A stretch of DNA of 64,000 bases from a bacterium. Lineage in GTDB: Bacteria > JAHJDO01. Made by a program: the position numbers and the translations under genes. The stretch covers positions 109,992 through 173,991 of the forward strand of contig JAUSPT010000032.1 in the NCBI GenBank assembly GCA_030652805.1. Direction: 5' to 3'. Position 1 is the first letter of the stretch. The number at the start of each line of letters is the position of its first letter. The notes under the pieces were generated by a model. The model did no database searches. It saw only the letters and a program-made list of their open reading frames with translations, and was not told the DNA's origin. Below are positions 10,104 to 40,964 of this stretch, one piece after another.

Positions 10104-10661
10104 CTATGACAGTATTAAGATCTTACCAATACTTAATTTGCTTCTTATCATATTGGAATTCATTTCCTTAGCTTTTAGTCCTATTTGTTCCACCTTGAGT
10201 ATTTGCGAACAAGTTTGAATATTATAGATAAATTGAACAAGCGAGGACATCTGAGCCTCGCATTCAACCTCAACAGCCAATTTTTTATATCCTTCATTTT
10301 CTCCTGAGGTATCAATGAATGACACAGGCTTCATATTTAAGATACTTACATGATTATTTCTTGCAGCAGATTCTATTTCGCGAAAAATTCTGGCTATCTC
10401 CTCTTCCTCAGACCCTTTCTGCTTCACTCTATCAGCATAAACCTCATACTCAGAGAAAACCTTTTTTCTGTTTTTTACAGCTCTAATATTCTTCATTAAA
10501 CTCATTCTCTTTATCTGAATTTCCTTATTCGCCTTTAACCATTTCTTAGCTATAGGTTCAAATATAAAATTATACAGTAATGCGCACGCAATAATCGCCG
10601 CACAAAGGTAAAAAACGCCCTTCTCTCTCTTTGAAAGTGCAGCCATGGATTTTATTAACAT
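10104..10661 (-). CDS. PilO/GspM-like inner-membrane assembly protein of the T2SS/T4P-like machine
   Basis: 185 aa with an N-terminal TM (VFYLCAAIIACALLY), a coiled region, then a ferredoxin-like C-terminus (KLAVEVECEAQMSSLVQFIYNIQ). Last gene of the pseudopilin operon. Confidence 0.65.
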   Translation of the reverse strand: MLIKSMAALSKREKGVFYLCAAIIACALLYNFIFEPIAKKWLKANKEIQIKRMSLMKNIRAVKNRKKVFSEYEVYADRVKQKGSEEEEIARIFREIESAARNNHVSILNMKPVSFIDTSGENEGYKKLAVEVECEAQMSSLVQFIYNIQTCSQILKVEQIGLKAKEMNSNMIRSKLSIGKILILS

Positions 10662-10666
10662 TATTT

Positions 10667-12265
10667 TTAGCTCTCTATTTCACATTGAATATAAAAATCT
10701 GCAACTTCCATATCGCGAAGTCTTCGCATGTTAGAAGACTTTAACTGAACATTCTTAAAGTAAGACGACTTTTCCAGTATGTCTATAAGGCCTAATGCAT
10801 CGGATAATGCCTTAGACTGCCCTTTTATTTTAAGAGTATTGTTGAGCTGGTAATCAAGGATTGATAGGGAAATAGTATCAGGAATTATCTTATGTAATTC
10901 ATACAGAATATCTAAACATGAGTTTTTAGTATCTATTTGTTTCTTTATAACACGCAGCCTGTTAGCGCGCTTATTAACTTCTTTAGCAATTGGATCAGTT
11001 TTCCCGATCTCTATATCCAGCCATTTTGATGTATTCTGTTTGTCATAGATGATTCTTGTAGAAATACCTAAAATAAGAAGTAATATACCCGCGCATTGAG
11101 AGGCTAAAACAAGATAATGTTTTCGCTTTTCTCTGACTTGCCTCTGCTTTTTTATTCCATCCGGTAAAACATTAAGCAGAACATTAGGAAAGTTTCTAAT
11201 CAAGCCTATAATTGAACACAAAGAAGTTTCATGTTGATTTGCAATAGAAAATTTTTCTTCCTGCAATGTTAAATTCTCTACAGGATTAAATATTTCCACA
11301 GGCATGTTAAAACTCTTGGACAAATTCTCCACCAGTTTATTATGAACTTTTCCACTTAGAAAAACACTTGTTATCTCTCTATTATCTTTCTTATAAGAAT
11401 TGAGAGATTTTGTTATTTCTTCTAAAAGGAATTCTTGTGTTCTGTTCTCAGATAGAGAAATATTCCTCGTATAAACTAATTTCCCATTAAATATCACTTG
11501 AATATCAACTGAGAACATATCTATATCAATAAGGGCAACTGGTTGATTTATCTCAGGATGTTCTTTGATAAAGGCAGAAGCTGTAGCTTGAGAACTTAAT
11601 TCAATATATTCTGGATTTAATTTCAGATTCCTTAATAACTCAAGCTGCTTGTTTATAACATCTTGATGGACAAGAACTAGCATTACCCTGGAATAGCCAT
11701 CTTTATTGCTTCCTATAACCTTAAAAGCTGTAACAAGTTCCTCCTTAGAATATGGAAGCTGCTTTTCAGCTTGAAATTGCACCATATGTGCTATTTCTCC
11801 TTCACTAATTGACGGCAGATTTAAATATCTGACTGTTACAAGACTTCTCGGAATACAAGCTATAACCTTTTTAGGCTTGATCATCAGATTATTGATTATA
11901 TGCTTAAGTTTCTCTTGCTTTTCATCATTGTTTTTAATCTCTTCTGTTAAAAGAGTTATAATTTTTATCCTGGATTTTCTCCACTCAGAAATACCCTGGA
12001 CAACCTTTATGCTATTTTGGCCTATTTCAATCCCTGTAATTACACGTGTGTTTATTAAATTAGACCATAGAGGATAGATTTCTGACCATAGCGTCTTAGC
12101 TTTTTTCTTCGTGTAAATCCGAAATTCGAATATCGAAATCCGAAACAAATTCAAAATTCTAATTTTAAAAATTCTAAACATTGTTTTGAGCATTTGGATT
12201 TTTGTTATTTGATATTGTTTCGTATTTTGTGCTTCGTGCTTCGAGTTTGATTTTTTAACTTTCAT
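10667..12265 (-). CDS. PilM-PilN fusion protein (functional GspL equivalent); start codon uncertain
   Basis: Actin-like PilM region (ITGIEIGQNSIKVV, ALIDIDMFSVDIQVI), a TM segment (YLVLASQCAGILLLILGI), then a PilN-like periplasmic part. The first ~70 codons translate word repeats (FRIFKIRILNLFRISIFEFRIY) and are probably not coding. Confidence 0.75.
   Translation of the reverse strand: MKVKKSNSKHEAQNTKQYQITKIQMLKTMFRIFKIRILNLFRISIFEFRIYTKKKAKTLWSEIYPLWSNLINTRVITGIEIGQNSIKVVQGISEWRKSRIKIITLLTEEIKNNDEKQEKLKHIINNLMIKPKKVIACIPRSLVTVRYLNLPSISEGEIAHMVQFQAEKQLPYSKEELVTAFKVIGSNKDGYSRVMLVLVHQDVINKQLELLRNLKLNPEYIELSSQATASAFIKEHPEINQPVALIDIDMFSVDIQVIFNGKLVYTRNISLSENRTQEFLLEEITKSLNSYKKDNREITSVFLSGKVHNKLVENLSKSFNMPVEIFNPVENLTLQEEKFSIANQHETSLCSIIGLIRNFPNVLLNVLPDGIKKQRQVREKRKHYLVLASQCAGILLLILGISTRIIYDKQNTSKWLDIEIGKTDPIAKEVNKRANRLRVIKKQIDTKNSCLDILYELHKIIPDTISLSILDYQLNNTLKIKGQSKALSDALGLIDILEKSSYFKNVQLKSSNMRRLRDMEVADFYIQCEIES
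12114..12242. repeat. Cluster of short direct 'word' repeats at the gspK/pilMN junction
   Basis: AAATCCGAAA at 12115 and 12136. AAAATTCTA at 12153 and 12168. Tandem heptamer GTGCTTC at 12229 and 12236. Contains the ATTCGAAT palindrome. Confidence 0.7.
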
Positions 12266-13265
12266 GCCAGTATTCTATCTTTATATTATTATCTTCTTCT
12301 CTTTGTAAAACAACATCCACTTTTTTTGCAAGCTTACTATTATTTAACACACTTGTCACATTTGCTGTAAAAACACTTGAACATACTGTTAAATATTCTG
12401 TTTGTATGAGAGCAGTTAATATTTGCCTTTGTTCAGATGTTAATTGTTGATAATTATTTAAATTCGGGATAATACTCTCAAGTGTCTTGAAAGAATATAA
12501 ATCCTCCTCTCCGCCATCCTGCCCTCTGTAGTCCAAGATTTGCTGCGTGAGCGTATCATCCATTCCCAAAGCAGCAAAGACTTCCTTTCCAGCAGTGTTT
12601 ATATTAATCTTCCCATCTCCATAAATTGTGATATATGGTTTTAGCTTTTTAAATATCTCAGCCGTAATTCCCCTTATCAAATACATCTCCTCTAAACACT
12701 CAATTAAATCGTTTTTACAATTATAAGGTACACTTAACCCCTGATAGAAATCTTCTTCTCCATCTCCTAAAGAATCTGAATCAAGCCAGTCAACAATATA
12801 GTCTGCAATTACTGTATCTATATCAACTATCTCAAGAAGTTTTTTTATCTGGCTTAATCTAACTCCATCAACAACACCGTCTTTGACAAGTTTGTTAATA
12901 TTAAGCCTTCTCTCCTCGTCAATCATCCCATATACGCTAGTCATGTCTTTATTATCATCTTCAATCTGATAACTAACTGTAAATGTGCCATCTCCTACAC
13001 CTGCATTCTTAAATGCTTCTGGATTATTACTCCATGAATCATTAAGAGAGTCGTATATATATTCTTCCTCTGCTTTATCTCTATTTAGTTCATAACAGGC
13101 TCTCTTGATACCTGCCTTACATATATATAAGTTCTTGAGACTGCTGATATGATACTCAGTAAGCTTTATACCAACAGCTGTGTGATGGGCAAAACTAATT
13201 GCTAAAAGAGAAAGAATAGCTAAAATCCACAAGGTTATGATTAGGATAGAACCACGCCTATTCAT
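12255..13265 (-). CDS. gspK: GspK-like minor pseudopilin
   Basis: The N-terminus RGSILIITLWILAILSLLAI lacks the +5 Glu, as expected for GspK. HhH-like ININTAGKEVFAALG near the C-terminus. 336 aa. Sits after the J-like gene. Confidence 0.8.
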   Translation of the reverse strand: MNRRGSILIITLWILAILSLLAISFAHHTAVGIKLTEYHISSLKNLYICKAGIKRACYELNRDKAEEEYIYDSLNDSWSNNPEAFKNAGVGDGTFTVSYQIEDDNKDMTSVYGMIDEERRLNINKLVKDGVVDGVRLSQIKKLLEIVDIDTVIADYIVDWLDSDSLGDGEEDFYQGLSVPYNCKNDLIECLEEMYLIRGITAEIFKKLKPYITIYGDGKININTAGKEVFAALGMDDTLTQQILDYRGQDGGEEDLYSFKTLESIIPNLNNYQQLTSEQRQILTALIQTEYLTVCSSVFTANVTSVLNNSKLAKKVDVVLQREEDNNIKIEYWHES

Positions 13266-13818
13266 ACGTTATCCCTGTATCAAATATTGGAATTTCTGTT
13301 ATTGCCTCAAGAATATTATCCTCTTTACTCCTAATTGACAATTTCACTGCATATGGCAGGCTGCCTTCTTCCCATGAATCTTTCCATTCTTTCTCTACAT
13401 CACAATAAGAAAAAATTAGTTCTTGAATGCCAGAAACCAGCTCCCTTTTCTTGTTTTGTCCTCTTAAACTCTCAGGATATGTCTGGGCATCTCTCATTAT
13501 GTTACCGCTATCCAAATAATAGCTAACTTTATAGATCTGAGTTATTAGATCCTTATCTTGATACACATCCCTTATCACGGGCATTGAAATATTGTGCTTT
13601 TCTCCCTCAAACTTAATCTCAGAAAACCTAGTCACGTTTCTCAGGTCTTTTGTCATCCTATTAAGTGCCATTTGCGAAGATTCAGGGAAACGTGTTTTCG
13701 CATCACCTTCATTCCATACCTTGATGCCTGAATACAAAGTGCTGTATACTGCGCTGACAATTACAGCAAAAATCAGAATTGCAATTAACAATTCCAATAA
13801 TGTGAACCCTTTTCTCAT
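13258..13818 (-). CDS. GspJ-like minor pseudopilin (prepilin-type N-terminal cleavage/methylation domain)
   Basis: MRKG/FTLLELLIAILIF with Glu at +5. 186 aa. Confidence 0.8.
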   Translation of the reverse strand: MRKGFTLLELLIAILIFAVIVSAVYSTLYSGIKVWNEGDAKTRFPESSQMALNRMTKDLRNVTRFSEIKFEGEKHNISMPVIRDVYQDKDLITQIYKVSYYLDSGNIMRDAQTYPESLRGQNKKRELVSGIQELIFSYCDVEKEWKDSWEEGSLPYAVKLSIRSKEDNILEAITEIPIFDTGITYE

Positions 13819-14165
13819 TCTTCAGTCTCTCTTTCAAGATACGTCACCAGAGTTAATTTCTTTTCAATATTATTCTGATCCCATGACACGCTCAATACGG
13901 CTTCACTCAGGTCAGTATCTTCAATAACATTTGTATCCAGTTTCCATCTGTATTTCTCATCTTCTCCATGTGTATCTTCTAATCCATTTTCTATATCCCA
14001 CATCTTTCTTTCTAAATAAAAGCCGGCATCTACGTAATTTACAATTGCTCTTGTCCCATTCAAACAGCTAACAAATGAATGTATGATGATTACTAAACCA
14101 AGAGATAAAACAGCTACTGTTATCATTACCTCAAAAAGAAGAAAACCCTTTGAATATCTTGACAT
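13815..14165 (-). CDS. GspI-like minor pseudopilin
   Basis: SKG/FLLFEVMITVAVL with Glu at +5. 116 aa. Confidence 0.75.
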   Translation of the reverse strand: MSRYSKGFLLFEVMITVAVLSLGLVIIIHSFVSCLNGTRAIVNYVDAGFYLERKMWDIENGLEDTHGEDEKYRWKLDTNVIEDTDLSEAVLSVSWDQNNIEKKLTLVTYLERETEE

Positions 14166-14610
14166 AACCTGTGGTCTCTTTATTGGTTAAAGTATAAACT
14201 TCGCCATCTGCGCCTGATAAATGTATTGTTAATTCATCAGCTCTTCCATCTTGATAAAATACTGCATACGGTTTAGCACACTCCAGAAGTATGTTGGTGG
14301 AGAACCTCCTTTTTCTACCAAGCTTGTTATTTAGTGCAATAAATTTTTCTGGATTTAAGGGGTCTTTTGCTACACTGACCCAGTATTCTTTATTATTAAC
14401 ATCAAAATCTATCCTGTGAATTACCTGCTCCATAATTGCTCTCTCCTGCACATACTTAGTGAGCTTCGATATATCCCGACACAGGTTCCTAACCTGCAAA
14501 TTATCAAAAGTATGTCTAAACAAAGGAGTAGATATTGCTGTAAGGATACTGAGTATGCTAATAACTAGAATCAACTCAATAAAGGTAAACCCTTTCTCCC
14601 GCATCTTCAT
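14131..14610 (-). CDS. GspH-like minor pseudopilin
   Basis: MKMREKG/FTFIELILVISIL. I place the start at 14610 because ATGA overlaps the gspG stop (14607-14609). The track ORF extends to 14634. Confidence 0.78.
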   Translation of the reverse strand: MKMREKGFTFIELILVISILSILTAISTPLFRHTFDNLQVRNLCRDISKLTKYVQERAIMEQVIHRIDFDVNNKEYWVSVAKDPLNPEKFIALNNKLGRKRRFSTNILLECAKPYAVFYQDGRADELTIHLSGADGEVYTLTNKETTGYVKIFKGFSSF

Positions 14611-15017
14611 TCGTTTGACGCACTCTCTTCCCAATTAGTAATATCATCCCCTCCGCCAACTACTCCGTCCGGTCCACAGGAGAAGAGGTCATAATCATCG
14701 CCATGCTCTCCAGGACACTTGTACTGATATGAACTACCCCATGGATCCGCTGGCATTTTTTTCTTAATATAAGGTCCCTTCCATGTCTCAAGCTCTGAAG
14801 GTTTCTCACGTAATGCATTAAGCCCCTCTTCAGACGTAGGATATCTACCATTATCCAGTTCAAATAGCTCCAAGGCTACTGCAATATTTGCTTCAATATC
14901 TGCCTTCGCCGCTATAATCTTTGCCTGTTTGGACCTGCCTGCAAACCTTGGAGCCACCATTGCAATAAGCACACCAATAATAATAACAACAAGCATAAGC
15001 TCTATCAGAGTGAAACC

Positions 15018-15032
15018 ATGTATTTTCTGTGC
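15018..15032. repeat. Left inverted repeat of the IS (terminal)
   Basis: atgtattttctgtgc matches the reverse complement of 16419-16432 (atgattttctatgc): 13 matches, 1 mismatch, 1 indel. Confidence 0.6.
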
Positions 15033-15092
15033 TAGGATTGAAGAACGAAAACGATAAACAGGTAATTTAACCTTAAAACAGGAGGAAAAGGA

Positions 15093-16181
15093 ATGGATAC
15101 AATTACGTATGCTGGTGTGGATCTTCATAAAGATTCGATGACTATTGCTGTAACTAATTCTCTTTCTAACGACCCTTACAACGAAGCGAAGATTACTAAA
15201 ATTCACTGTAAATGCGTTAACAAAGTCTCTGCCTTTTTTGCTGATCTTCCTCATCCATGTACAGTTGCTGTTGAGGCTGTTGGCTTCTACCACTGGTTCT
15301 GGGATCTGGTCAGTCCTCTTGCCTCTGATATCTATCTCCTGAATGCTGTTGAAGTCAGACGTTACGCAGGCAGGGACCCTAAGACTGACTCCAGAGATGC
15401 CAGACTTATTGCGCGGCTTCTTGCTTCCAACGAAATTACTCATAATAGCAAGCTCTCTGTCTTTGTCCCCGACAATAACCTCAGACCTATCAGAGAACTT
15501 GCTCGCCATCGTCATCAAACTGCCCGTTCCCTTGCTTGCTCTAAAAATAGATTCAGACGTATCACTCTCAAAGAAAACCTTCCAGGACCAAAAACTCTTG
15601 ACGCTCATCATGCTCTTCGCTGGATCAGAGGCTTTGAAAACAAAACTTCTGATATCCATAAATTTCAGCTTAGACAGCTTACTGATCAAATAATTTCTTT
15701 TGAAAGAGATGTATCTGATATTGAAAGACAAATCCTTGACCTTACTAATAAAGCTGGTTATCAACCTCTTATGAAACTCCTTCAAACAATCCCAGGTATT
15801 GGTGATGTAGTTGCGTATACTATTATTGCAGAGATCGGCGATTTCTCCAGATTTCAAACTGCTGGACAAATCGCCTCTTTTGCAGGTCTTACTCCCAGAG
15901 TCTTTCAAAGTGGTGATTCCTGCAGGCATGGCAGTATTAATAAACAAGGACCTCCTAATCTTAGATGGGTTCTTCAGCAATCTGCATGGGTGGCTATTAG
16001 ACACAGCGAATTTATTAGAAAAATATTTAATAAAATTAGCAGGAAAGCCGGTAAGAAAAAGGCCGCTTGCGCTATTGCCAGAAAAATTCTTGTCTGGAGC
16101 TGGGCTATGGCTAAGAACAATACGGCTTTTAATAAAGACTTTATTAATAAAGATAAAGAAAAAACGGAAAGGGCAGCTTAA
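15093..16181 (+). CDS. IS110-family DEDD transposase/recombinase
   Basis: The N-terminus YAGVDLHKDSMTIAV is the DEDD_Tnp_IS110 type. The C-terminus LLQTIPGIGDVVAYTIIAEIGDFSRFQTAGQIASFAGLTPRVFQSGDS..GSINKQGPPNLRWVL is the Transposase_20 type. RBS aggagg 8 nt upstream. Confidence 0.92.
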   Translation: MDTITYAGVDLHKDSMTIAVTNSLSNDPYNEAKITKIHCKCVNKVSAFFADLPHPCTVAVEAVGFYHWFWDLVSPLASDIYLLNAVEVRRYAGRDPKTDSRDARLIARLLASNEITHNSKLSVFVPDNNLRPIRELARHRHQTARSLACSKNRFRRITLKENLPGPKTLDAHHALRWIRGFENKTSDIHKFQLRQLTDQIISFERDVSDIERQILDLTNKAGYQPLMKLLQTIPGIGDVVAYTIIAEIGDFSRFQTAGQIASFAGLTPRVFQSGDSCRHGSINKQGPPNLRWVLQQSAWVAIRHSEFIRKIFNKISRKAGKKKAACAIARKILVWSWAMAKNNTAFNKDFINKDKEKTERAA

Positions 16182-16442
16182 TAATGAAAATATTTCATAC
16201 TCTCTAGGATTACACCTGCAGCAGTGACCTTGAATTCGTTTATGAGTAAAAGGCTCAAGCCGTAAAGCTCGATAGCGTGAATAAGGCCTGCTGCAGGCGT
16301 ATTTGTTCTCGTGCGGCTCTTGACCGCGAATAGTTGATTGCGACCTTTGAGAGGTTTTGAGAATATGAAATACTACATTAAAAAGCTGTGAAATTGTTAT
16401 GTGAAAGTTTTTAAATACGCATAGAAAATCATAGTTAAACCC
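16182..16442 (+). ncRNA. Candidate IS-encoded guide RNA (bridge RNA / seekRNA) in the 3' non-coding end
   Basis: 261 nt of non-coding DNA lie after the transposase, against 75 nt before it. Long-range helix CCTGCAGCAG (16215-24) / CTGCTGCAGG (16288-97). GTGAAA occurs at 16388 and 16401, and GTGAAAgTTTTT resembles the target GTGAAAccTTTTTTT. Not folded or aligned. Confidence 0.3.
16419..16432. repeat. Right inverted repeat of the IS (subterminal, 8 nt from the CC core)
   Basis: gcatagaaaatcat is the reverse-complement partner of 15018-15032. Subterminal IRs are a described trait of the IS1111 subgroup. Confidence 0.6.
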
Positions 16443-16486
16443 TTTTTTTGACATTTGAACTTTGATTTTTGACATTTATTTTCCTC

Positions 16487-17698
16487 CTAGTGTATTAAAA
16501 TATTTATTTGAAATATTGGTAAAAGCATACTTATTACTATAAACCCTACAATAGACCCCATAATAAGGATCATTGCAGGTTCCAGTAATGAAGTTAAGGT
16601 CTTTGTTGCTCTATCAACCTGGCGAGCATATGTATCAGATATTTTCAATAAAGACTTCTCTAATGCCCCACCTTCCTCTCCAACAGCAATCATGTTTGTT
16701 GCAAAAACAGGAATCCACAGTCCTCTCCCAAGGCTGGCTGCAAGTTTATTGCCTTCTGAGACATCTTTAGCAGCTCTTTCTATCTCTCCGGATATAGCCC
16801 TATTAGTAATAGTATTCTTTACTATGTTCAGAGACTGCAGAATCGGTACTCCATTTTCAAGTAGGGTTGCAAGAGTTCTAGAAAAACGGCTTACTTCAAC
16901 CTTTTGAATAAGCTTACCGACCAGAGGAATTGCAAGCTTCCACCTGTCAATTACGAGACCTCCTTCTTTTGTATTCTTTAACCGTTTAAAAAGAATTATA
17001 ATTAGGAATATAACCGCGACGGGCACCCACCAGAATTCAACAATGAAATTACTTGAAGACACTAAAATCTGGGTTGGTAAAGGCAGTCTTTGTCCCATAT
17101 CTTCAAACATAACCACCAATTTAGGAATTACAAATGTCAAAAGCACTATAATCGTGCCTATTCCGGCAAAAAACATAAGTATAGGATAGGTGAGAGCCGC
17201 TTTTATCTTTGATTTTATTTCCTCTTCGCTCTCATAAAAATCCGCAAGTCTCAATAGAACGCTCTCTAATATCCCCCCTGTCTCGCCGGAAGCAACCATA
17301 TTAACATAAAGTGGAGAAAAGAGCTTTGGATATTGATCTAAGGATTCAGATAAGCTCTTGCCATCCTTAATATCAGTGTATATTTCATCCAGAACGGCGC
17401 TGAGAAGCGTATTGTCTGCTTGTTTAGATAATATGGCTATCGATTCTAAGAGAGGAACCCCAGCATCCAATAAATCTGATAATTGTCTGGTGAATAAACT
17501 AATATGCTTTAAACCGATACGCTGAAAAATTCCAAGGCTGGACTTAAAGCCTTTTTTCTCTTTACCTGCACCTATAGACAAGACAAAATAGCCCATTTTA
17601 TCCAGTCTGCTTAATGCAATGTCCTGATTTTCTGCTTCAATGACTCCTGATATTATTTTTTTAGGACCATGTTTCGCTTTGTATGAGAAAACAGGCAT
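16487..17698 (-). CDS. gspF: Type II secretion / type IV pilus platform protein GspF/PilC
   Basis: 403 aa, duplicated T2SSF domains (SLFTRQLSDLLDAGVPLLESI and FSRTLATLLENGVPILQSL), three TM segments. Confidence 0.92.
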   Translation of the reverse strand: MPVFSYKAKHGPKKIISGVIEAENQDIALSRLDKMGYFVLSIGAGKEKKGFKSSLGIFQRIGLKHISLFTRQLSDLLDAGVPLLESIAILSKQADNTLLSAVLDEIYTDIKDGKSLSESLDQYPKLFSPLYVNMVASGETGGILESVLLRLADFYESEEEIKSKIKAALTYPILMFFAGIGTIIVLLTFVIPKLVVMFEDMGQRLPLPTQILVSSSNFIVEFWWVPVAVIFLIIILFKRLKNTKEGGLVIDRWKLAIPLVGKLIQKVEVSRFSRTLATLLENGVPILQSLNIVKNTITNRAISGEIERAAKDVSEGNKLAASLGRGLWIPVFATNMIAVGEEGGALEKSLLKISDTYARQVDRATKTLTSLLEPAMILIMGSIVGFIVISMLLPIFQINILIH

Positions 17699-17700: not shown

Positions 17701-19395
17701 CTATTTCTCCTCTTGCTGCGTTACTCGAAGAACTTCTTCAATAGTAGTAATTCCCTTACAAACCTTGCCCAATCCATCCTGACGCAAAGTCTTCATTCCC
17801 TGAGAAATAGCCTTGTCTCTGATTATATTAGCTGATACCCGCTTTACTATAAGTTCACGGATTTCATCATTAATTACCAGCATCTCATGTATTGCAGTCC
17901 TACCTTTGAACCCTGTAAATCTACACTTCTCGCATCCTTTTCCCATGAATATTTTTGTTTCCTGTGGTATTCCCAAACTTTTTTTCTGTATAGTAGAATT
18001 TTTTACGATCTCTTTGCAATCCTCGCATATAACTCTCAGGAGTCTTTGCGCTATCACACACTCAAGAGATGATGCCAATAAATATGCCTCTATTCCCATG
18101 TCAAGAAGCCTTGTCATAGCTCCTGCAGCATCATTTGTGTGCAGTGTAGAGAAAACAAGGTGTCCTGTAAGAGCTGTTCGTATTGTTGTTTCAGCTGTCT
18201 CAAAATCCCGTATCTCTCCTACCATCATAATGTCAGGATCATGACGAAGCATTGAACGCAGGCCTCTAGCAAACGTTAGATCTATTTTTGGTAACACTTG
18301 AATCTGAGAAATCCCCCTTAACTGATACTCAATTGGGTCTTCTATTGTAACTATTTTTTTCTCACTATCGTTTATTTCGCTTAAACATGCATACAATGTT
18401 GTAGTCTTTCCACTCCCTGTAGGCCCTGTCAGGAGAATTATTCCATGTGGCTTATGTATCACAGATTTCAAAATTTCGAGATGTCCTGAAGAAAGACCCA
18501 AGACATCCAATCCCAGAAAAACATTGCTGGATAGTAACCTCATATTCACACTTTCCCCAAAAGACGTCGGAAGAACTGATATTCTTAAATCCAGCTCAGC
18601 ATTTCCTATCTTTACTTTTATTCTTCCATCCTGAGGCATACGTCTTTCAGCTATGTTGAGAGAGGACATTATTTTTATTCTGGAAACCAGAGCCTCTCGA
18701 AAGTGCTTAATAGATTTAGGCACCTTTGCGTCATGCAGTATGCCATCAATACGGTATCTTATACGCAACTCGTCTTCATATGGTTCTATATGAATGTCAG
18801 TAGCTCTATCTCTGTATGCTTCTAAAAGTATCTGATTAACAAACTTTATTATAGAAGCATCTGCAGCTAGCTCTTCTATATTATCAACAGAAGGCTCCAC
18901 CATTTTTATTGCCTCCGTTTGAGAGGTTTGCTTCATCATTTCCTCTATAGTTTCAGCGCCAATGCCATAATATTTTTTTAAACCCTTCATAATATCTAAC
19001 TCACCGGCAAGCATTGGTTTGATCTTATAGCCAAGAAGTAATGTTAAATCATCTATAAACTCAAGATTTGACGGATCAGTTAATGCAACAGTTAACACCT
19101 TCCCTTCCAATTTGATAGGAATCAGCTCATAGTGGCATGCAAACTTTGCAGGAACCTTTTTTATTACATCCGGGGGAATAGTAAGCTTCTTTATCTGAAT
19201 ATATGAAATATTTAGTTTCTTGGATAAAAGAGGCAAAACTTCTTCTTCGGAAGCGATTCCCATTTTAACAACTGTGCGGCCAAGGAATTCTCCCATCTTC
19301 TGATGCTGCGATAAAGCCTGCTCTAGTTGCTTATCTGAGATAATATCATTTGCAACAAGCAGCTCACCTAAACGCAAATTTTCTTTAAAAAGCAT
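17701..19395 (-). CDS. gspE: GspE/PilB-family secretion ATPase with N-terminal MshEN/T2SSE_N domain
   Basis: Walker A LLTGPTGSGKTTT, Asp box, Walker B IMMVGEIRD, His box TGHLVFSTLHTND, and the tetracysteine CEDC..CEKC. Confidence 0.93.
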   Translation of the reverse strand: MLFKENLRLGELLVANDIISDKQLEQALSQHQKMGEFLGRTVVKMGIASEEEVLPLLSKKLNISYIQIKKLTIPPDVIKKVPAKFACHYELIPIKLEGKVLTVALTDPSNLEFIDDLTLLLGYKIKPMLAGELDIMKGLKKYYGIGAETIEEMMKQTSQTEAIKMVEPSVDNIEELAADASIIKFVNQILLEAYRDRATDIHIEPYEDELRIRYRIDGILHDAKVPKSIKHFREALVSRIKIMSSLNIAERRMPQDGRIKVKIGNAELDLRISVLPTSFGESVNMRLLSSNVFLGLDVLGLSSGHLEILKSVIHKPHGIILLTGPTGSGKTTTLYACLSEINDSEKKIVTIEDPIEYQLRGISQIQVLPKIDLTFARGLRSMLRHDPDIMMVGEIRDFETAETTIRTALTGHLVFSTLHTNDAAGAMTRLLDMGIEAYLLASSLECVIAQRLLRVICEDCKEIVKNSTIQKKSLGIPQETKIFMGKGCEKCRFTGFKGRTAIHEMLVINDEIRELIVKRVSANIIRDKAISQGMKTLRQDGLGKVCKGITTIEEVLRVTQQEEK

Positions 19396-19415: not shown

Positions 19416-21314
19416 TCAATAGTGTTTTTCTGTCTCTTCATGAATAGTAAGCTCTTTTTTCTTAGCATCATCAAGAAGCTTAAGTATGTTGTCTTCGTGC
19501 TTTATTTCATCCTTTGCTTCTTTCTCGGCGGTAGTTAGCAAACCATATTCTCCAGTGACTATATGTGGCGTAAGAAAAATCACTATTTCCTGCTTAATTA
19601 TCTCCTTATCTATCTTGCCAAACAAATACCCAAATATAGGAATTTTTCTAAAAAAGGGAATCCCGCTGTTTGCGTCTGTTAACTCATCTTTTATAAGACC
19701 TGCCATAACTATTGTAACACCATCCTTTACCATAACTGTTGTTTCTGTCTCGGATTTTGAGACTATGGGTATAGTATTTCCCTCAGATGTTGTTACAGTG
19801 CCTGAAACTGAGCTTACTTCAGGCTTGATCTTCATTGTAATAAAACCATGTTCATTTATTGTTGGTGTAACAGAAAGCGTTACTCCTACATCAACATTTG
19901 TTACACTTTCTGCAGTCTCTGTTGTGGAAGAGCCCTGTGAGACAGTAGTAGTAACATAGGGTCTTGTTTCTCCTACATGTATTCTGGCTTCAGCATTGTT
20001 GATAACAGTTATTCTCGGGCTCTGGAGAAGATTTGTCTTACCGATTGTATTCAGTGCCTGAAGAAAGCCTGTATATTTATCTACAGCCAGCTTACCAAGA
20101 GAAAGGGTCATACCAGGAGAAAAGCTATCCTTTGCAGCCAGTTCAAATTTACCTATGATCTCTGCGCTTTTGTTCTTTGAGAAAAGATAATCCCAGTTTA
20201 CGCCCATTTTGTATTCATCAGTTAGAGTGATCTGGATAATTCTTGCTTCAATTAATACCTCTCTTGTTCTTGCATCAGCAGCCCTGATTATTTCAGAAAG
20301 TTTTCCCATATTTGAAGGCAGGTCTGTTATGATTATTTTATTTGTCGCCTTATCTCCAATGACACTGCCAATATTCTTGGTAACTTCTTTTGCAAGTTTT
20401 GCTTCTATATCTTCAACCTTAGCATAATTAAGTTCAAATACTTCTGTAACTGTTGCGGCTCTAGAATCACATTCCTCAATAACTCTTGCTGCTAGTTCAA
20501 CGTTTTCCGGTACATCAATAAGTATAATCTTACCTGCTTTCTGGTCTATCTGAATATGTCCCTTGCTGGAGATAATTTTTTTCAGCTTTCCCTCCATCTC
20601 CTTAGGATCTGTATACTCAAGTATAAAGGTTTTTGTGATATAAGGACTATCTAATTCCTTAATAATTTCGTCAAGTCTTGATTCTGCGTTAATAACATCA
20701 TTTATAATTAATGTGTTTGTTCTCTCATCAACAACAATTCTCCCAATCTTTGTTTTCATCTGATCCAGTGCTTTTTTTACATCAGTAGCCGTTGCATATT
20801 TTAGCTGATATATTTTAATTTCCCTCGGATCTTTGAATTGCCTGCCATGAATTGTCTCATATTCTCTCTCAGTCATTACTTTAATAATATCCCCTTTTTC
20901 TTCATAAGCAAGGTTATTTGTCTCAAATATCATTCTGAGCACATCCCATGCCTCCACATTTCTTAAAAAGATACTTATTTTCCCTTTTACACTATTACTG
21001 GCAACAATATTCACTCCGCTTTTTTTAGACAGAAGCTTAAATGCTTCCAGGATATCCATATTCTTGAGTTCCAAAAGAGTGATCTTTGAAGAAGATATAT
21101 TGTCTGTCTCTTTGATAGATGTTTTTGGAGACGTTCTGATGGGCATTTTTAAAGGCGTTTTTTTTACCTCTGGAGGTGTTCTCTCAGCTTCTTCAAAAGA
21201 TACTAGAGGAGGCGCCTCTAAAGGTTCTTCAGTTTGGGAAAACACTGATATTTTGGGTTGAGTACAAACAAATGCTACCATCAAAAACAAAACTATTATT
21301 CTCATAGTAAACAC
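19416..21314 (-). CDS. gspD: Secretin GspD/PilQ family
   Basis: Signal peptide, N-terminal secretin N-domains (LELKNMDILEAFKLLSKKSGVNIV), C-terminal secretin core (GIPFFRKIPIFGYLFG...IVIFLTPHIV). Confidence 0.9.
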   Translation of the reverse strand: MFTMRIIVLFLMVAFVCTQPKISVFSQTEEPLEAPPLVSFEEAERTPPEVKKTPLKMPIRTSPKTSIKETDNISSSKITLLELKNMDILEAFKLLSKKSGVNIVASNSVKGKISIFLRNVEAWDVLRMIFETNNLAYEEKGDIIKVMTEREYETIHGRQFKDPREIKIYQLKYATATDVKKALDQMKTKIGRIVVDERTNTLIINDVINAESRLDEIIKELDSPYITKTFILEYTDPKEMEGKLKKIISSKGHIQIDQKAGKIILIDVPENVELAARVIEECDSRAATVTEVFELNYAKVEDIEAKLAKEVTKNIGSVIGDKATNKIIITDLPSNMGKLSEIIRAADARTREVLIEARIIQITLTDEYKMGVNWDYLFSKNKSAEIIGKFELAAKDSFSPGMTLSLGKLAVDKYTGFLQALNTIGKTNLLQSPRITVINNAEARIHVGETRPYVTTTVSQGSSTTETAESVTNVDVGVTLSVTPTINEHGFITMKIKPEVSSVSGTVTTSEGNTIPIVSKSETETTVMVKDGVTIVMAGLIKDELTDANSGIPFFRKIPIFGYLFGKIDKEIIKQEIVIFLTPHIVTGEYGLLTTAEKEAKDEIKHEDNILKLLDDAKKKELTIHEETEKHY

Positions 21315-25325: not shown

Positions 25326-26180
25326 TTATGGCAATAAGCCGTATTCACTTTCTTTTTCTCGAACTTCATTATTTGAAGATAATGATAATTTATTGTTAAC
25401 AAGCTCGTCTTTCAACCTTGGAATAGCATACTTATCAAAATATTCCTGTTCCAAATCTATGCCAGCAAATTTGCGCTTATGTTTTAATGCTGCGACTCCA
25501 GTGGTTGCACTGCCACAAAAAGGGTCTAATATGATGTCTCCTTCATTACTTGTGGCTAATATCACTCTTTCTAATAAGGATTCTGGTTTTTGAGTTGGGT
25601 GCTTACCATATTTTTTTTCGCCATTTTTTGGTGTTCCAATCGCCCAAATACTTCTCATCTGCTTTTTGGATTTCTTAATAAAATCATTTGGGAAGCAGCC
25701 ATCTCTCATTACATCATAATTAAAAGTATGTTTTGCTTTTTTATCTTTTCTAGCCCATAACAAAGTTTCGTGACTTGCTGTAAACATTCTGCACGAAAGA
25801 TTAGGCGCAGCATTTGGTTTATACCAACAAATATCATTTACGATATGCCAACCTTGTTTTTGAAGGGCGAAACCACACGCATATATTGAATGATAAGTCC
25901 CTGAAATCCATAAAGAACCATTTGGTTTCAATACACGTTTACACGCTTTGATCCAGTTATAATGGAATTTGAAATCTTCTTCTATCCCTTGGCTTTTATC
26001 CCATTTCCCTTTGTTGACACTCACTCTTTTTCCAGCATGGCAGGTAAATCCGTCATTTGACAGGTTGTATGGCGGATCTGCAAAAATCAAATCAATGACT
26101 TTTTCTGGCAGTTGGTTGAGTGTTTTAACTACATCGCCAAGAAATAATCTGACGTTTATTTCTTTAAAATAGGCTTCCAT
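25326..26180 (-). CDS. Beta-class DNA methyltransferase (DPPY; probably N6-adenine, N4-cytosine not excluded)
   Basis: Motif IV IFADPPYNLS lies near the N-terminus. Motif I ILDPFCGSATTG lies near the C-terminus (beta-class order). Confidence 0.88.
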   Translation of the reverse strand: MEAYFKEINVRLFLGDVVKTLNQLPEKVIDLIFADPPYNLSNDGFTCHAGKRVSVNKGKWDKSQGIEEDFKFHYNWIKACKRVLKPNGSLWISGTYHSIYACGFALQKQGWHIVNDICWYKPNAAPNLSCRMFTASHETLLWARKDKKAKHTFNYDVMRDGCFPNDFIKKSKKQMRSIWAIGTPKNGEKKYGKHPTQKPESLLERVILATSNEGDIILDPFCGSATTGVAALKHKRKFAGIDLEQEYFDKYAIPRLKDELVNNKLSLSSNNEVREKESEYGLLP

Positions 26181-31674: not shown

Positions 31675-32023
31675 TAACCATATCTCCTATACGAACCTGA
31701 GCGCTACTAATGGTGTCAGAGGGAAGTTCCAGCACATGCCGTACGCTTCTTCCTCCAAAAGCCAGCCGAAATGGTTTTAACTGAGATATAGTCTTTACAA
31801 CACAATAATTCTTATCCATAAAAACCACATCAATCGGGAACCTCATAAACCACGTATGTATGGCTTTGCAGTTTTTAATCAGTAATCCCTCTCCAGAATC
31901 AAGTTTAGCGCGTCCAATCAGCCCCTTAGTTCTCATTTGCCATGTATCTGCAACAACCACTCGTTGTCCTAAAATCTGATTATTACCAAAACTGATCACT
32001 ATAGTTGTCTCTCTAGAATCCAC
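31661..32023 (-). CDS. DUF192 (COG1430) family protein
   Basis: RTKGLIGR..L..GEGLLI..CKAIHTWFMRFPIDVVFMD. Confidence 0.75.
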   Translation of the reverse strand: MDSRETTIVISFGNNQILGQRVVVADTWQMRTKGLIGRAKLDSGEGLLIKNCKAIHTWFMRFPIDVVFMDKNYCVVKTISQLKPFRLAFGGRSVRHVLELPSDTISSAQVRIGDMVNARI

Positions 32024-32930
32024 CCTGCAAAAGCTTTATAATGATAGGGCCAAAAAGCATTACAAAAACTGCTGGAAAGATAAATCCTACAAGGGGCAGC
32101 AGCATTTTTACCGGCGCCTGCATTGCTGTTTTCTCTGCTATCTGCATCCTCTTGGTCCGCATCTGATCAGATAAGACCCTGAGTATAGGCCCAAGACTTG
32201 TTCCCAGTTGATCTGCCTGTATAAGCGATGTGCAAATAGCAGAAAGATCCGGCATATTAACTCTGTCTGCCATTGCTTTTAAAGCGTCGCGCCTTGTTGA
32301 CCCAAGCTTAATCTGCTGCTGCATGTGAAAAAGCTCCTCTACAAGTGGGCCTGCTTTCATCTTGTCAACCACTTTATTAATAGCTGCTGAGAAATCCAAT
32401 CCTGCCTCTACTGAAAGAGTTATCAAGTCCAGGCTGTAAGGAAGGCCTCTCCAGATCCCTTTATGCCTTTTCTTAATCTGATCCTTCAACCATTGATCAG
32501 GATAGAAATAAGCAAGCATGAACAGGATAATGTAATACCAAGCAATTTCAATAGACAGCATCTTAAGTATTAAAAGCCCGACGATTGGCGCAAGTATTAA
32601 TAGTAATTCTTTTATAGCCAAAAATTCTAGAGCGCTTATAGCTCCTGGATTTCCAGCTGAGGTTAGTTTTTGCGTGATATTATTCTGATATTCTTTAAGC
32701 CCAAACCGCTCGTGCAATTTCGCTAGTTTCCCGACCCATGGCATTAAGAAGCGATATAATGGATAGGTACGCATAAACTTTTCTCTTTTTTTCTCCAGCT
32801 GACCTAACATATCCAGATCTATCGCCTCCTCTTCCTTCTTCTCAAATAACGAGAGTATTCCTGCGCCTATAAAATAGAAAGCTGTAAAAATAAAAATATA
32901 AATTAGTGCTAAAATTATTATACTACCCAT
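32013..32930 (-). CDS. tadC: Tad pilus platform protein TadC
   Basis: T2SSF-domain membrane protein (LPYSLDLITLSVEAGLDFSAAI). Paired with the tadB-like gene downstream of the CpaF gene. Confidence 0.85.
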   Translation of the reverse strand: MGSIIILALIYIFIFTAFYFIGAGILSLFEKKEEEAIDLDMLGQLEKKREKFMRTYPLYRFLMPWVGKLAKLHERFGLKEYQNNITQKLTSAGNPGAISALEFLAIKELLLILAPIVGLLILKMLSIEIAWYYIILFMLAYFYPDQWLKDQIKKRHKGIWRGLPYSLDLITLSVEAGLDFSAAINKVVDKMKAGPLVEELFHMQQQIKLGSTRRDALKAMADRVNMPDLSAICTSLIQADQLGTSLGPILRVLSDQMRTKRMQIAEKTAMQAPVKMLLPLVGFIFPAVFVMLFGPIIIKLLQGGF

Positions 32931-32935
32931 TTTCC

Positions 32936-32972
32936 CCTTTGTGCCTTTGTGCCTTTGCCACTTTGTTTCTTT
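32936..32972. repeat. Degenerate tandem octamers directly upstream of tadC
   Basis: ccttt GTGCCTTT GTGCCTTT GCCACTTT GTTTCTTT. On the gene strand this is AAAGGCAC repeats ending in the RBS aaggggaaaATG. Confidence 0.7.
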
Positions 32973-32975
32973 ATC

Positions 32976-33830
32976 CTAAACATCAATATTAACAATTTTA
33001 TAAATCAGGAATCCACCTATTAGCTCCAGGAAAACAACTGTTGCAAGAAACGCCCAGCCAATAGCAGAAGTAAACATTATCTTCATTGTTGCCGGGTCCA
33101 GAAAATACATTATTATGCCAAGTCCTATAGGAAGCAAACCTACTACCAATCCCTGCATCTTGCCCTGAGATGTGAGCGCAGCAATCTTGCCATGCATTTT
33201 ATCTCTCTCCCTTATTGTATTTGCAATTCTATCAAATATCTCAGAAAGATTACCCCCTAATTGCCTGGAGATATTAATTGAGGTGACAACCAATTCCATC
33301 TGTTCACTGGGCATTCTCTTTCCCAATCTTTTCAACGCTTCTTCCATTGAAACCCCTAACTTAGTAGACCGGATAACCAGACTAAATTCCTGAGACAAAG
33401 GAGCCTCAGATTCCTTAATTAAAAAATCCAGTGCTTGTTGCAGACTTAAACCTGCCTTAAGAGAATTTGACACCGTTGTTAAAGCCCCTGTTAATTGAGT
33501 GTCAAACTTTTTCTTGCGATTCTTCTTTAACTGTCTGAGATAAATTCTTGGCAGAGAGAATCCAACGGCTCCAAATGCTAAGCATATTAGCAAACTATGA
33601 CTGAGCAAGTAACCAACCATTGCCATAACTAGAACACCAAGAATACTAAAATAAGCAATCTTTTCTGCTGGAATAAAAACAAACATCTCATCCAGCTCTT
33701 TTTCAGTTCCTGCAGCTACTTTCTTTTCATACTGTTTAATTCCCTTCTTAAAAGTCTGATAACCTGCCTGCGCCAGTATAAACACTGCTAAAAATGTAAG
33801 CCCAAGTATTAATAGCTCAATTATCTGCAT
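32976..33830 (-). CDS. tadB: Tad pilus platform protein TadB
   Basis: T2SSF domain (LTGALTTVSNSLKAGLSLQQAL) and TM segments at both ends. Confidence 0.85.
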   Translation of the reverse strand: MQIIELLILGLTFLAVFILAQAGYQTFKKGIKQYEKKVAAGTEKELDEMFVFIPAEKIAYFSILGVLVMAMVGYLLSHSLLICLAFGAVGFSLPRIYLRQLKKNRKKKFDTQLTGALTTVSNSLKAGLSLQQALDFLIKESEAPLSQEFSLVIRSTKLGVSMEEALKRLGKRMPSEQMELVVTSINISRQLGGNLSEIFDRIANTIRERDKMHGKIAALTSQGKMQGLVVGLLPIGLGIIMYFLDPATMKIMFTSAIGWAFLATVVFLELIGGFLIYKIVNIDV

Positions 33831-35530
33831 TATTTTCCAGTCCTCTCTTCTTCAAATATCTTCATATCCAGGTGCATTCCCTTTGCTTCCAACTGAGGAA
33901 CAAAACTTGGAATATTGCCAGTAGCTACAAAAGTTCCCTGCACTTTACCATCCTGGCCAATTCCTGTTTGTTTGAAAACAAAAATATCCTGTAAAGTAAT
34001 GACTTCTCCCTCCATGCCTGTAACTTCAGTCACAGCAATAATCCTGCGGCTTCCGTCACTCAAACGAGACTCCTGAATTATTATGTTAATAGCTGAAGAT
34101 ACCTGTTCTCTGATAGCTCGGACAGGCAGATCCATACCTGACATTAAAACCATAGTTTCCAGACGCGAAAGAACATCACGAGGAGAATTGGCATGAGCAG
34201 TAGTAAGAGAGCCATCATGGCCAGTGTTCATAGCCTGAAGCATGTCCAGAGCCTCTCCACCCCTGCATTCTCCTACCACTATTCTATCAGGACGCATACG
34301 AAGAGCATTCTTTACCAGATCTCTAATAGCAATAGCTCCTTTGCCTTCAATATTTGGAGGCCGGGCTTCCAGAGAAACAACATGCTCCTGCGGTAGCTTA
34401 AGCTCTGCAGCATCCTCAATAGTTACTATTCTTTCGTCTTTAGGAATATAGGAAGACACTACATTAAGCAGTGTTGTCTTTCCTGATCCTGTTCCTCCTG
34501 ATATAATAATGTTCTTGCGTGAAAGCACACATATCTCAAGGAACTTCGCAGTATCTTTATTCAATGTTCCAAAACCTATCAAATCATCTATAGTAAAAGG
34601 AGTTTTGGAGAACTTGCGAATAGTTATACTTGGTCCTTTTAGAGCTAGAGGCGGAATGATCGCATTTACTCTGGATCCATCCTTTAATCTTGCATCTACC
34701 AGTGGCATGCTTTCATCTATTCTGCGGCCAATAGGCCCTACTATCCTCTCTATCACAGCCATAACCTGTTCATCGCTGGCAAAGGTTTTCTCGCAGAGCT
34801 GAAGCTTGCCTTTCTTTTCAATATAAATCTGATCCTTTCTGTTAACCATTATTTCTGTTACATCATCATCCTTTAACAGATCCTCCAGAGCTCCCAAACC
34901 CAGCGCTTCATCCAGCACGTCCTTTACCAAATCCTCTATATTCACCCGCTTAGGAATAGAGTCAGCCATTTCCTTAATTATGCCTCTGGTAGCTTTTTCA
35001 GTGCGGCTCCTGACTTCCTGCTCCTTTCCCTTTTCAAATGTTAAACTCTTTAAGTCAATACGCTGAATGAGCTGCTTATGAATTTTGATTCTTATATCAG
35101 AAAGCTGGCTAACCTTCCCTTTAGAAGCTGCTTTATCAGAAGGCATGGATGCAGGCGCTGGTACACGAACTTGTTTTACCTCTGTCTTTTCATCCTCATC
35201 TCTATCTTTTTTAGCTTCCTGCAACAAGCTGCCCTCAGAAATACCTGCATCTTCTAAAACCATGCTCAAGTGCCCTATTTTGACTTCTTCTCCCAGCGGC
35301 CAAAGCTCTTCCTTAGCTATTTTTTTCCCATTAAGATATGTGCCATTGCCACTGTCCAAATCTTTAATATATACCTGATTATCCTTCAGTCTGAGACTGG
35401 TATGATGTCTTGAAGCCCTTGGATCAGAAATCATCAAATCACAGTCTTTCTCCCTGCCAATGGTTACAGCTTCCCCCTCCAATTTAAAAATTCTTTCCTT
35501 ACCTGAAGCTTCTTTAATAACTATTCTCAT
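33830..35530 (-). CDS. cpaF: FHA-domain / CpaF(TadA) secretion ATPase fusion
   Basis: N-terminal FHA ([34 protein letters not shown]). A linker follows, then the CpaF core ([15 protein letters not shown] Walker [13 protein letters not shown] Walker [13 protein letters not shown] His box). Confidence 0.92.
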
Positions 35531-35533
35531 TCA

Positions 35534-36892: not shown

Positions 36893-36919
36893 GTTTTTTC
36901 CTCCTTGTTTTTGTTTTAA

Positions 36920-37750: not shown

Positions 37751-37768
37751 ATCTACCTCCCTTTTTTA

Positions 37769-39463: not shown

Positions 39464-39951
39464 TATAAGAGACTCGCTATTTCCCCTAACTGTTGTTTTA
39501 TCCACTTGATTATTTCATCCTTGGAGAAGCAGAACCCTAGAAAACGGCAGCTCCCCTTCACTGTAGTTCCTCCACCAAATATGGCTGATAAATAAGGTCC
39601 TGCTGGCACAGTATATGTTACATCCATCTTCGCGCTTCCTTTCGCCATCACATACGAGAGAAAACTTGCAAGGTAATTAGTTCCCGGGATAAAACTCATA
39701 TCCGGGAGCCCTGCTTCTCTTAACAAATCAAAGCTGGTATTGACATTTCCATGACCAAAGAATACAGCACCGGCTCCTCCGCCATCTCTCGTTTCCTTTA
39801 GAGCTCCTTCTCTGGCTGCTATGTAAACCTTTGATTGAGCCACCATAACCTTTCCAAAGTGAACAACAATCATCATAATGAGTATAAAAATCGGCAGGAC
39901 AATTGCTGCTTCTACTGCTGCCTGACCACTGTTAGATCTAATTAGCTTCAT
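39463..39951 (-). CDS. TadE/TadF-like minor pilin
   Basis: MKLIRSNSGQAAVEAAIVLPIFILIMMIVV (TadE N-terminal motif). The start at 39951 is 1 nt after the upstream stop. The track ORF extends to 39966. Confidence 0.78.
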   Translation of the reverse strand: MKLIRSNSGQAAVEAAIVLPIFILIMMIVVHFGKVMVAQSKVYIAAREGALKETRDGGGAGAVFFGHGNVNTSFDLLREAGLPDMSFIPGTNYLASFLSYVMAKGSAKMDVTYTVPAGPYLSAIFGGGTTVKGSCRFLGFCFSKDEIIKWIKQQLGEIASLL

Positions 39952-39952
39952 T

Positions 39953-40956: not shown

Positions 40957-40964
40957 AAAGTTAA

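Follow-up and report, generated by a model that had tools for sequence, protein, structure and literature searches.

A candidate target-sparing IS1111-type insertion at the prepilin peptidase site of a bacterial gspG gene

In a 64,000-nucleotide stretch of bacterial DNA (GenBank assembly GCA_030652805.1, contig JAUSPT010000032.1, positions 109,992 to 173,991; hereafter the window, with positions counted from its first letter), a 1425-bp insertion sequence (IS) splits gspG, the gene of the major pseudopilin of a type II secretion system (T2SS), between the leader peptide and the mature N-terminus. The question raised by this locus is whether such an insertion inactivates the gene, perhaps reversibly, or whether the element is built in a way that allows the gene to be expressed through it. 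The best reading, in our opinion, is that the insertion spares its target rather than being a knock-out that awaits reversion. The element would then represent a previously undescribed IS1111-type clade, RNA-guided, which targets the prepilin peptidase site and is built to spare the gene that it interrupts. We give this reading as a whole a probability of about 0.6.

The interrupted gene and the open frame through the element

The gspG ATG is found at 16475 behind the ribosome-binding site (RBS) GGAGG (16483-16487, minus strand), the last leader codon of host origin is GGG (16442-16440), and G/FTLIELMLVV (the slash marks the cleavage site) restarts at 15017/15014; the start and the restart are seen directly in the sequence, as an earlier note on this DNA had described them. 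That note had also placed the insertion exactly at the leader/mature boundary, and this holds: removal of the 1425 bp in silico gives an in-frame prepilin, and intact GspG orthologues (89-90% identical, with the gspF-G-H-I-J-K order kept and without the IS; sequence ATGTCAAAAAAAGGGTTTACTCTGATTGAG) read MSNVKCQMSKKG/FTLIEL, with the pattern MS..KKG/FTLIEL, their DNA containing ATGTCAAAAAAAGGGTTT. The gene presents the leader-G/FTLIE junction, the N_methyl motif, the T2SSG domain and the gspD-E-F-G-H-I-J-K context of a T2SS major pseudopilin. The features on which the argument is based are the following.

16440..16475, minus strand: 5' end of gspG, ATG and leader codons MSKIKVQMSKKG (direct sequence check)
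15015..16437, plus strand: IS element proper, 1423 bp, which with one 2-bp core makes the 1425-bp insert (475 codons); alignment with five related copies
14607..15014, minus strand: mature part of gspG, FTLIELMLVV... to the stop (Pfam T2SSG, TIGR01710)
14607..16475, minus strand: uninterrupted open reading frame (ORF) of 622 amino acids, made of the host leader, 475 antisense codons of the IS and mature GspG

The 622-amino-acid ORF is codon-aligned with the transposase gene on the other strand. The gspG frame has no stops across the element, compared with 24 and 54 for its two alternatives on that strand. At the left end the antisense reading is ...SILAQKIHG, giving ...KIHG/FTLIEL, and it is the element itself that provides the Gly(-1) codon beside the mature pilin (ACC at 15015-15017, GGT in the fusion). 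Among relatives this codon is GGT, GGG or GGC, that is, it varies synonymously.

The simplest explanation would be an ordinary disruptive insertion, with gspG a pseudogene and the open antisense frame a by-product of codon bias or of a GC-rich past. Codon-aligned antisense frames are intrinsically stop-poor in GC-rich genes, gene callers annotate a truncated gspG at the filled site, and out-of-frame copies of the element exist (L002-L004, L034, L050 and L082, see below). However, the element has a GC content of 40% (host 39%) and yet no stop: TTA, CTA and TCA are absent among the 29 Leu and 24 Ser codons of the transposase, whereas in the neighbouring host genes they account for 36% of the Leu and 21% of the Ser codons, hence a probability of about 8e-9 for the coding sequence. 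No stop occurs in the non-coding region of the right end either (P=0.0035 in shuffles). In the elements that we designate L006 and L005, also of 1425 bp, the antisense frame is open; in L005 an ORF of 912 codons runs from a host leader through a first element and most of a second one. Furthermore, both junctions were available for 21 high-GC relatives, and in 18 of these the length is divisible by 3 and the pilin frame is free of stops, against 10-25 in the other frames; these in-frame copies fall into eleven distinct lengths, from 1404 to 1539, every one a multiple of 3. The coding part of the high-GC copies alone is weak evidence, because antisense frames there are naturally stop-poor; their non-coding parts taken alone are also stop-free (P=0.004-0.04 in each of 14 elements). 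Finally, the window copy and L002, the closest divergent relative (80% nucleotide identity), differ at 48, 28 and 130 sites in transposase codon positions 1, 2 and 3, respectively, and none of the 130 third-position changes has created a stop. A mere disruption, already disfavoured, is in view of these observations the least probable of the explanations considered here.

A second explanation starts from IS900, a member of the same family whose antisense ORF, hed, spans the whole element without an RBS and start of its own (PMC8141618, citing Doran 1997). The antisense ORF of the window would likewise be a protein of the IS, expressed from the host promoter, RBS and start codon, and its fusion to GspG would be incidental. 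The likeness is clear, since the ORF lies opposite the transposase, spans the whole IS and borrows the host start; IS900, too, inserts in one orientation at translation-initiation regions, where host signals drive the antisense ORF. Nevertheless, the antisense polypeptides of the window copy and L002 are only 58% identical while the transposases are 81% identical, the substitutions track the transposase frame only, and a Pfam search with the antisense polypeptide found no family; the 622-amino-acid fusion was not present in the protein collection searched. The ORF, moreover, never stops inside the element and always enters the pilin in frame through the Gly codon. IS900 differs in its point of insertion, between an RBS and its start codon, and in being GC-rich, so that its ORF could be an artefact of composition, whereas the ORF of the window is statistically secure at 40% GC, starts with a host leader, exits in frame into a host protein and lacks conservation at the protein level. 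We consider an independent Hed-like protein quite improbable. The ORF of the window is the counterpart of hed, here with a plausible purpose. The comparative data show the marks of selection on the antisense frame; what is conserved is its openness, its frame and the terminal Gly codon, and not the antisense protein sequence.

Relatives at prepilin codons and a sister group with surrogate leaders

About 60 related copies were gathered by exact and near-exact protein look-ups, by a scan of species-representative genomes and by a scan of metagenome contigs. Among them, 59 loci contained a full transposase, mostly 41-54% identical to that of the window and 81-97% in the closest copies. In 44 of the 59, (G/A/S)FTL(I/V/M)E is coded on the opposite strand directly outside the left end; the remaining loci mostly lack a flank or show near-variants of the FTLIE motif. 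An element of the window type (93-94% nucleotide identity) interrupts a different N_methyl protein in L006 (GCA_043824255.1), and in L030 and L038, which lie in different genes, the left ends match at 122 of 123 positions and the flanks at only 66 of 140. The right junctions show various intact host leaders, such as MRVQTRQA, MKSSEHRTRPA, MNSWRITRRG, MRKG, MEKKRVTG and MSQRKKA. To judge from these flanks, the insertions at prepilin codons are independent of one another. Chance does not account for the insertion, as the junction is repeated at dozens of independent loci; as part of the reading proposed above, the DNA of the prepilin peptidase site, (G/A)(-1)/F-T-L, would be the natural target of the clade. 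Literature searches for IS110/IS1111 elements that insert in prepilin, pilin or pseudopilin genes, or that carry surrogate leaders, brought up no such case.

The copies L002, L003 and L004 (JGI 3300009105, 3300009373 and 3300009320) present a common right flank, made of a hairpin, two small ORFs and a DeoR regulator, and two different prepilin genes on the left side. This pattern suggests that IS copies have recombined or that the contigs were chimerically assembled across the repeat.

A sister group, here called group B (L015, L016, L019-21, L030, L037, L038, L065 and L066), has transposases 51-54% identical to that of the window, and a junction and an RNA as in the window element. Its antisense frame is closed. 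Instead, its left end, of 122-266 nucleotides, carries an outward-facing promoter-like site (TTGACA-17-TAAACT in 10 of 12), a Shine-Dalgarno sequence, an ATG and a surrogate leader, a basic peptide of 13-30 amino acids that ends in ...(K/Q)xHG in frame with the host FTLIEL (MFKKNVSRSRSIVSQIQHG and MFNGKVISRKSHG are examples). The left tip of the window element, ..SILAQKIHG, resembles the ends of these surrogate leaders. Because two different devices both give a translatable leader-Gly/Phe junction, selection appears to act on the expression of the target pilin and not on a protein of the IS. A Hed-like protein fits poorly with a sister group that has lost the ORF and kept the leader-Gly junction.

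Group B elements measure 1362 (L020), 1437 (L030 and L038) and 1533 bp (L016), all multiples of 3, and 1436 bp in L037. In L016 (1612-1760) the right flank opens with a 25-50-nucleotide copy of the element's own left tip, preceded by a different Shine-Dalgarno sequence and ATG (MLRKIKDALEKIFSRGKTVVSQIQHG) and with no transposase behind it; this copy could be a fossil insertion, a domesticated surrogate leader, or the host source from which the leader of the IS was captured.

The same data bear on a third explanation, favoured by the earlier note, in which the insertion inactivates gspG and with it the T2SS, and precise excision by the DEDD recombinase restores it, as an ON/OFF switch. IS492 and Piv are DEDD relatives of the window element; IS492 reverses a gene knock-out by precise excision, and Piv acts inside type IV pilin genes. 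Phase variation would thus resemble that of IS492 and eps in Pseudoalteromonas (the precedent of precise excision is cited in PMC11208160). The family excises precisely via a circle and leaves no duplication, the transposase and the RNA look intact, and the remainder of the T2SS operon is intact. Besides, the earlier note had named fixation in orthologous loci, a lack of further copies and loss of the DEDD residues as findings that would count against a switch: the nearest orthologous loci are empty, copies with 93-94% nucleotide identity occur in other prepilin genes of another metagenome-assembled genome, and the catalytic residues are in place (see below). On the other hand, only the filled form of the site was found, in two assemblies; an exact look-up of the transposase protein returned only the same locus, in a Logan assembly. 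A pure knock-out switch leaves unexplained the stop-free, in-frame antisense strand and the Gly(-1) encoded by the IS, as well as the surrogate leaders of the sister group, which would act to keep the target expressed. The claim that the insertion simply turns the machine off is not supported as stated; the element is an open antisense frame that re-creates ...KIHG/FTLIEL. Excision and read-through are compatible, not mutually exclusive; a switch as the meaning of this insertion seems unlikely to us.

The comparison with Piv is also limited by the layout of the locus. A single pilin gene is interrupted by a complete IS, the window contains no inverted copies of the target or the element, and neither inverted target sites nor alternative pilin cassettes flank it, which means that the element is not an invertase; unlike the IS492/Piv branch, its transposase is of IS1111 type by the architecture of the ends. 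As a weaker corollary, pilin-targeting elements of the IS110 family could be the evolutionary source of the Piv-type pilin recombinases.

Recombinase, junction core and candidate guide RNA

The assignment of the element is based on the transposase and on the ends, with the following features.

15093..16181, plus strand: transposase/recombinase, 362 amino acids, with a DEDD RuvC-like domain and a Tnp domain with the GL-P----SG motif
15015..15092, plus strand: left end, non-coding for the transposase, 78 nucleotides
15022..15032: left subterminal inverted repeat ATTTTCTGTGC
16419..16429: right subterminal inverted repeat GCATAGAAAAT
16430..16437, plus strand: right tip CATAGTTA; tip plus core mimics the target (AGTTAAA compared with AGTGAAA)
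16438..16439: right copy of the core, AA on the plus strand and TT on the gspG strand
15013..15014: core dinucleotide at the left junction, AA on the plus strand; on the minus strand, the TT that opens the Phe(+1) codon TTC (15014-15012)

The transposase matched Pfam DEDD_Tnp_IS110 (PF01548, 1.5e-13) and Transposase_20 (PF02371, 2.7e-28), NCBIfam NF033542, "IS110 family RNA-guided transposase" (243 bits with a cut-off of 140), and the structure of the IS621 transposase, 8wt6 (E=1e-19), which bears out the family named in the earlier note. D10, E61, D99, D102 and S273 (S273-G274) are invariant across 17 relatives and align to the GIDTAK, IEATG, KTDtvDA and YESG motifs of IS621. The motif GL-P----S(T)G, which defines the IS1111 subgroup (PMC11187229), is present as GLTPRVFQSG, with G265, L266, P268 and S273 invariant. 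The inverted repeats that the earlier note had reported are real, subterminal, 11 nucleotides long and 91% complementary, at 7 and 8 nucleotides from the tips; in high-GC relatives they are GAGCAACATAG/CTATGTTGCTC. Subterminal repeats of 7-17 bp with short terminal extensions are an IS1111 trait, and so is a long right end (here 256 nucleotides, downstream of the transposase) with a short left end. From these characters we assign the element to the IS110 family, IS1111 type, with an apparently intact DEDD+Ser recombinase. It shares with ISEc11, ISPa11, ISKpn4 and IS4321/IS5075 the DEDD+Ser recombinase with its motif, the ends described, a single fixed orientation and the lack of target duplication. 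It differs in the slightly longer transposase (362 amino acids instead of 330-350), in the features that keep the interrupted gene translatable, and in the target: the known targets of the group are REP (repetitive extragenic palindromic) sequences, attC sites and the inverted repeats of transposons, non-coding or structural, and here it is a protein-coding prepilin motif.

The register of the junctions was settled by comparison of copies. In the gspG orientation, all right junctions read leader-G(G/C)N-TT-(C/T)A(A/T)CTATG... and all left junctions ...ACAT(A)-GG(T/G/C)-TT-CACNCT..., and TT is the sole dinucleotide found at both junctions in all the compared copies. CC is indeed present on both sides, as the earlier note had pointed out, but as a core it does not stand, and the comparison points to TT/AA: a CC/GG core was rejected given the GCN at the right junction in L002, L005 and high-GC copies, and the core is TT and not GG because these right junctions carry GCN codons. 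The orthologue of the window keeps GGG; it has AAAGGGTTT, with a Gly codon identical to that at the right junction of the window. Also rejected was a 1424-bp offset in which AAACC is shared, since it would frameshift gspG. With the TT core the element proper, 15015-16437, is shifted by 3 bp with respect to the earlier boundaries and the insert is still of 1425 bp. Insertion is site-specific and orientation-specific, only the TT core is common to both ends, and no target duplication beyond the core is seen (at least 44 loci).

Filled-site junctions: ...AAAAAAAGGGTTTAACTATG... and ...AAATACATGGTTTCACTCTG...
Predicted empty site: ATGTCAAAAAAAGGGTTCACTCTGATAGAG (junction ATGTCAAAAAAAGGGTTCACTCTGATAG)
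Predicted circle junction: ...GAAAATCATAGTTAAAACCATGTATTTTCTGTG... (..AATCATAGTTAAAACCATGTATTTTCTG..)

The mimicry of the target by the right tip, also mentioned in the earlier note, is real. Because the tip imitates the target, head-to-tail arrays of two clade members can be understood; in L005 (1-2960), L097 and L098 an element of the window type, with a 362-amino-acid transposase, lies head-to-tail with a second clade member with a 371-amino-acid transposase. It should be noted that Illumina adapter was found at the ends of these ENA metagenome contigs in L097 (1-45) and in the last ~90 nucleotides of L098. At the left junction, the target GTGAAA, 17 nucleotides of the left end and TAGGAT make up a promoter-like site facing the transposase (15009-15037, plus strand); the same arrangement, with TATAAT instead of TAGGAT, is found in L015 (1392-1420, plus strand). 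The junction itself may provide the -35 element for the transposase gene.

The right end encodes, to judge from its predicted fold and its covariation, a candidate structured RNA of the bridge/seekRNA kind with guides to prepilin codons. All its elements lie on the plus strand.

16191..16372: candidate bridge/seekRNA, nested stems with covariation
16191-16204/16359-16372: outer stem
16216-16224/16288-16296: stem Pa
16228-16232/16282-16286: stem Pb
16243-16246/16268-16271: stem Pc
16312-16315/16325-16328: stem Pd
16233..16242: putative target-binding loop, 5' side (AAUUCGUUUA), consensus GSNUUYA
16272..16281: putative target-binding loop, 3' side (AUAGCGUGAA), between Pb and Pc
16329..16341: putative donor-binding loop, 3' side (AAUAGUUGAUUGC), in which AUAGUUGA matches the right tip ATAGTT(A/G)AA

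RNAalifold on a loose alignment recovered part of the fold only, and a re-anchored alignment of 17 distinct sequences with four defined helices was used instead. In these helices 98.7% of the cells are paired, compared with 26-48% when the partners are slid; seven pairs show compensatory changes, and the covariation score was reached by 0 of 500 shuffles. In stem Pa 91 of 99 cells are paired (61.7 +/- 5.2 in shuffles).

The family consensus GSNUUYA corresponds to codon(-1), TTY and A of the target and would pair with the transposase-sense strand. In the 3' loop, AGCGUGAA is the reverse complement of TTC-ACG-CT (Phe-Thr-Leu; general form TTC-ACN-CT), and this segment is AGCGTGAA in 35 and AGNGTGAA in 41 of 45 distinct relatives. 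Each segment is thus complementary, as a predicted pairing, to a different strand of GSN-TTY-ACN-CT, and the TT core is where the two overlap. In the 3' guide, the G residues face those positions of the Phe and Leu codons that vary between C and T, and G-T wobble there could accommodate synonymous variants. Within the window, gspG (TTCACTCT) is the best match to the guide. Two unoccupied sites, in gspJ (GGGTTCACATTATTGGAA; 13792-13809, minus strand) and gspH (GGGTTTACCTTTATTGAG; 14575-14592, minus strand), match it more poorly. On the donor side, the guide ATAG(T/A)TGA and the right tip ATAG(T/A)T(G/A)AA agree in 34 of 35 copies.

In IS1111 seekRNAs two opposite-strand segments overlap at the crossover, and the segment complementary to the top strand is reported to lie 5' of the one complementary to the bottom strand (PMC11187229); the order in the RNA of the window is the same. 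In IS621 the order of the guides is the reverse of that arrangement (PMC11208160), its RNA is encoded in the left end and its core is CT instead of TT. What the element would share with IS621, apart from the homologous recombinase, is the use of a circular donor and an RNA of two loops, in which the target guide and the putative donor guide include a 2-nucleotide core. Two other candidate guides were rejected: the hairpin at 16343-16357 (ACCTTT..AGGTTT) covaries as a plain stem in L002, L005 and L006 and ignores the target, and the target-like outer stem of high-GC RNAs, GTTCACCG/CGGTGAAC, covaries as a stem in L057.

Proposed mechanism and genetic context

By analogy with IS621 and ISEc11, a complex of recombinase and RNA would pair with the target and with the circularised donor and exchange strands at the TT core, without target duplication and with precise excision being possible. 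Translation from the host gspG ATG would then read the 475 IS codons into FTLIEL..., with a regenerated G/F site. The hydrophobic pilin helix would presumably still insert the 622-amino-acid precursor into the membrane, and the prepilin peptidase would cut at the Gly supplied by the IS, giving normal mature GspG and a junk polypeptide that is discarded; both steps are without precedent. Translation of the operon mRNA would go on, and polarity on gspH-M would be avoided. In the sister group, the outward promoter, Shine-Dalgarno sequence, ATG and basic leader of 13-30 amino acids ending in Gly would all come from the left end. That an RNA-guided clade has specialised on the prepilin cleavage and methylation site, which ranks among the most conserved coding motifs of bacteria, and escapes the cost by a protein-level "splicing in trans" through the peptidase is a more tentative idea, which we would place somewhat below even odds. 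If it is true, the insertion would be nearly silent phenotypically, and the pilin promoter would double as an antisense regulator of the transposase.

Several observations weigh against the target-sparing reading. Three high-GC copies (L034, L050 and L082) are out of frame, and so is the right end in L002-L004 (1429/1471 bp), where the right flank has no evident leader; group B elements are mostly multiples of 3 without needing the frame, in a small sample. To our knowledge, prepilin cleavage with a leader of ~488 amino acids has never been demonstrated, and no prepilin peptidase gene was found among the ten window ORFs run against Pfam. As for the RNA, a search of the whole window at the Rfam gathering threshold gave no match, the covariation of guide and tip amounts essentially to one change between two clades, and none of the several alignments compared for a 5' donor guide was convincing.

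Other mobile elements also neutralise the cost of entering a conserved, useful sequence: phages and integrative and conjugative elements in tRNA or icd genes replace the interrupted gene end, and inteins and self-splicing introns likewise remove the cost of insertion. The device proposed here differs from these in relying on translation through the element and a host protease site, or in the sister group on a surrogate 5' end with a promoter, with neither duplication of 3'-end DNA nor self-splicing of RNA or protein. These would be two independent, convergent ways in which an IS preserves the function of the gene that it enters. Should cleavage by the peptidase prove real, mobile elements would have a new route to harmlessness, and prepilin peptidases would tolerate leaders of ~500 residues. 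The decades-old whole-element antisense hed ORF of IS900-type elements might be explained as a read-through device and not a gene. Furthermore, bridge-RNA recombinases of the IS110/IS1111 kind are being studied intensively as programmable genome editors, yet little is understood of the logic by which they choose targets in nature; this clade would offer a natural guide aimed at a protein-coding motif that is common to hundreds of genes per genome in some phyla. For annotation, pilin and pseudopilin genes that appear disrupted by this element may not be pseudogenes.

The T2SS operon occupies the minus strand of the window and, other than gspG, is intact.

19416-21314, minus strand: secretin
17701-19395, minus strand: GspE
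16487-17698, minus strand: GspF
12255-14634, minus strand: minor pseudopilins H/I/J/K
10667-12265, minus strand: PilM-PilN fusion
10104-10661, minus strand: GspM/PilO-like gene

In the leader region of intact gspG orthologues (L095 1678-1712, L096 2012-2046), four tandem ATGTCAA heptamers are followed by an A7 run and the Gly codon, and in the window (16443-16475, minus strand) there is a degenerate heptamer repeat with two copies of AAATGTCAAAAA. These repeats could give rise to variable leader length or slippage.

In addition, a second pilus system, of the Tad/Flp type, is present at 32000-41000 of the window, and a DNA methyltransferase gene was also observed.

36920-37750: RcpC/CpaB (Tad/Flp system)
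32976-33830: TadB/C-like gene (Tad/Flp system)
39463-40956: three tandem ORFs of 167 amino acids (Tad/Flp region)
25326-26180: DNA methyltransferase

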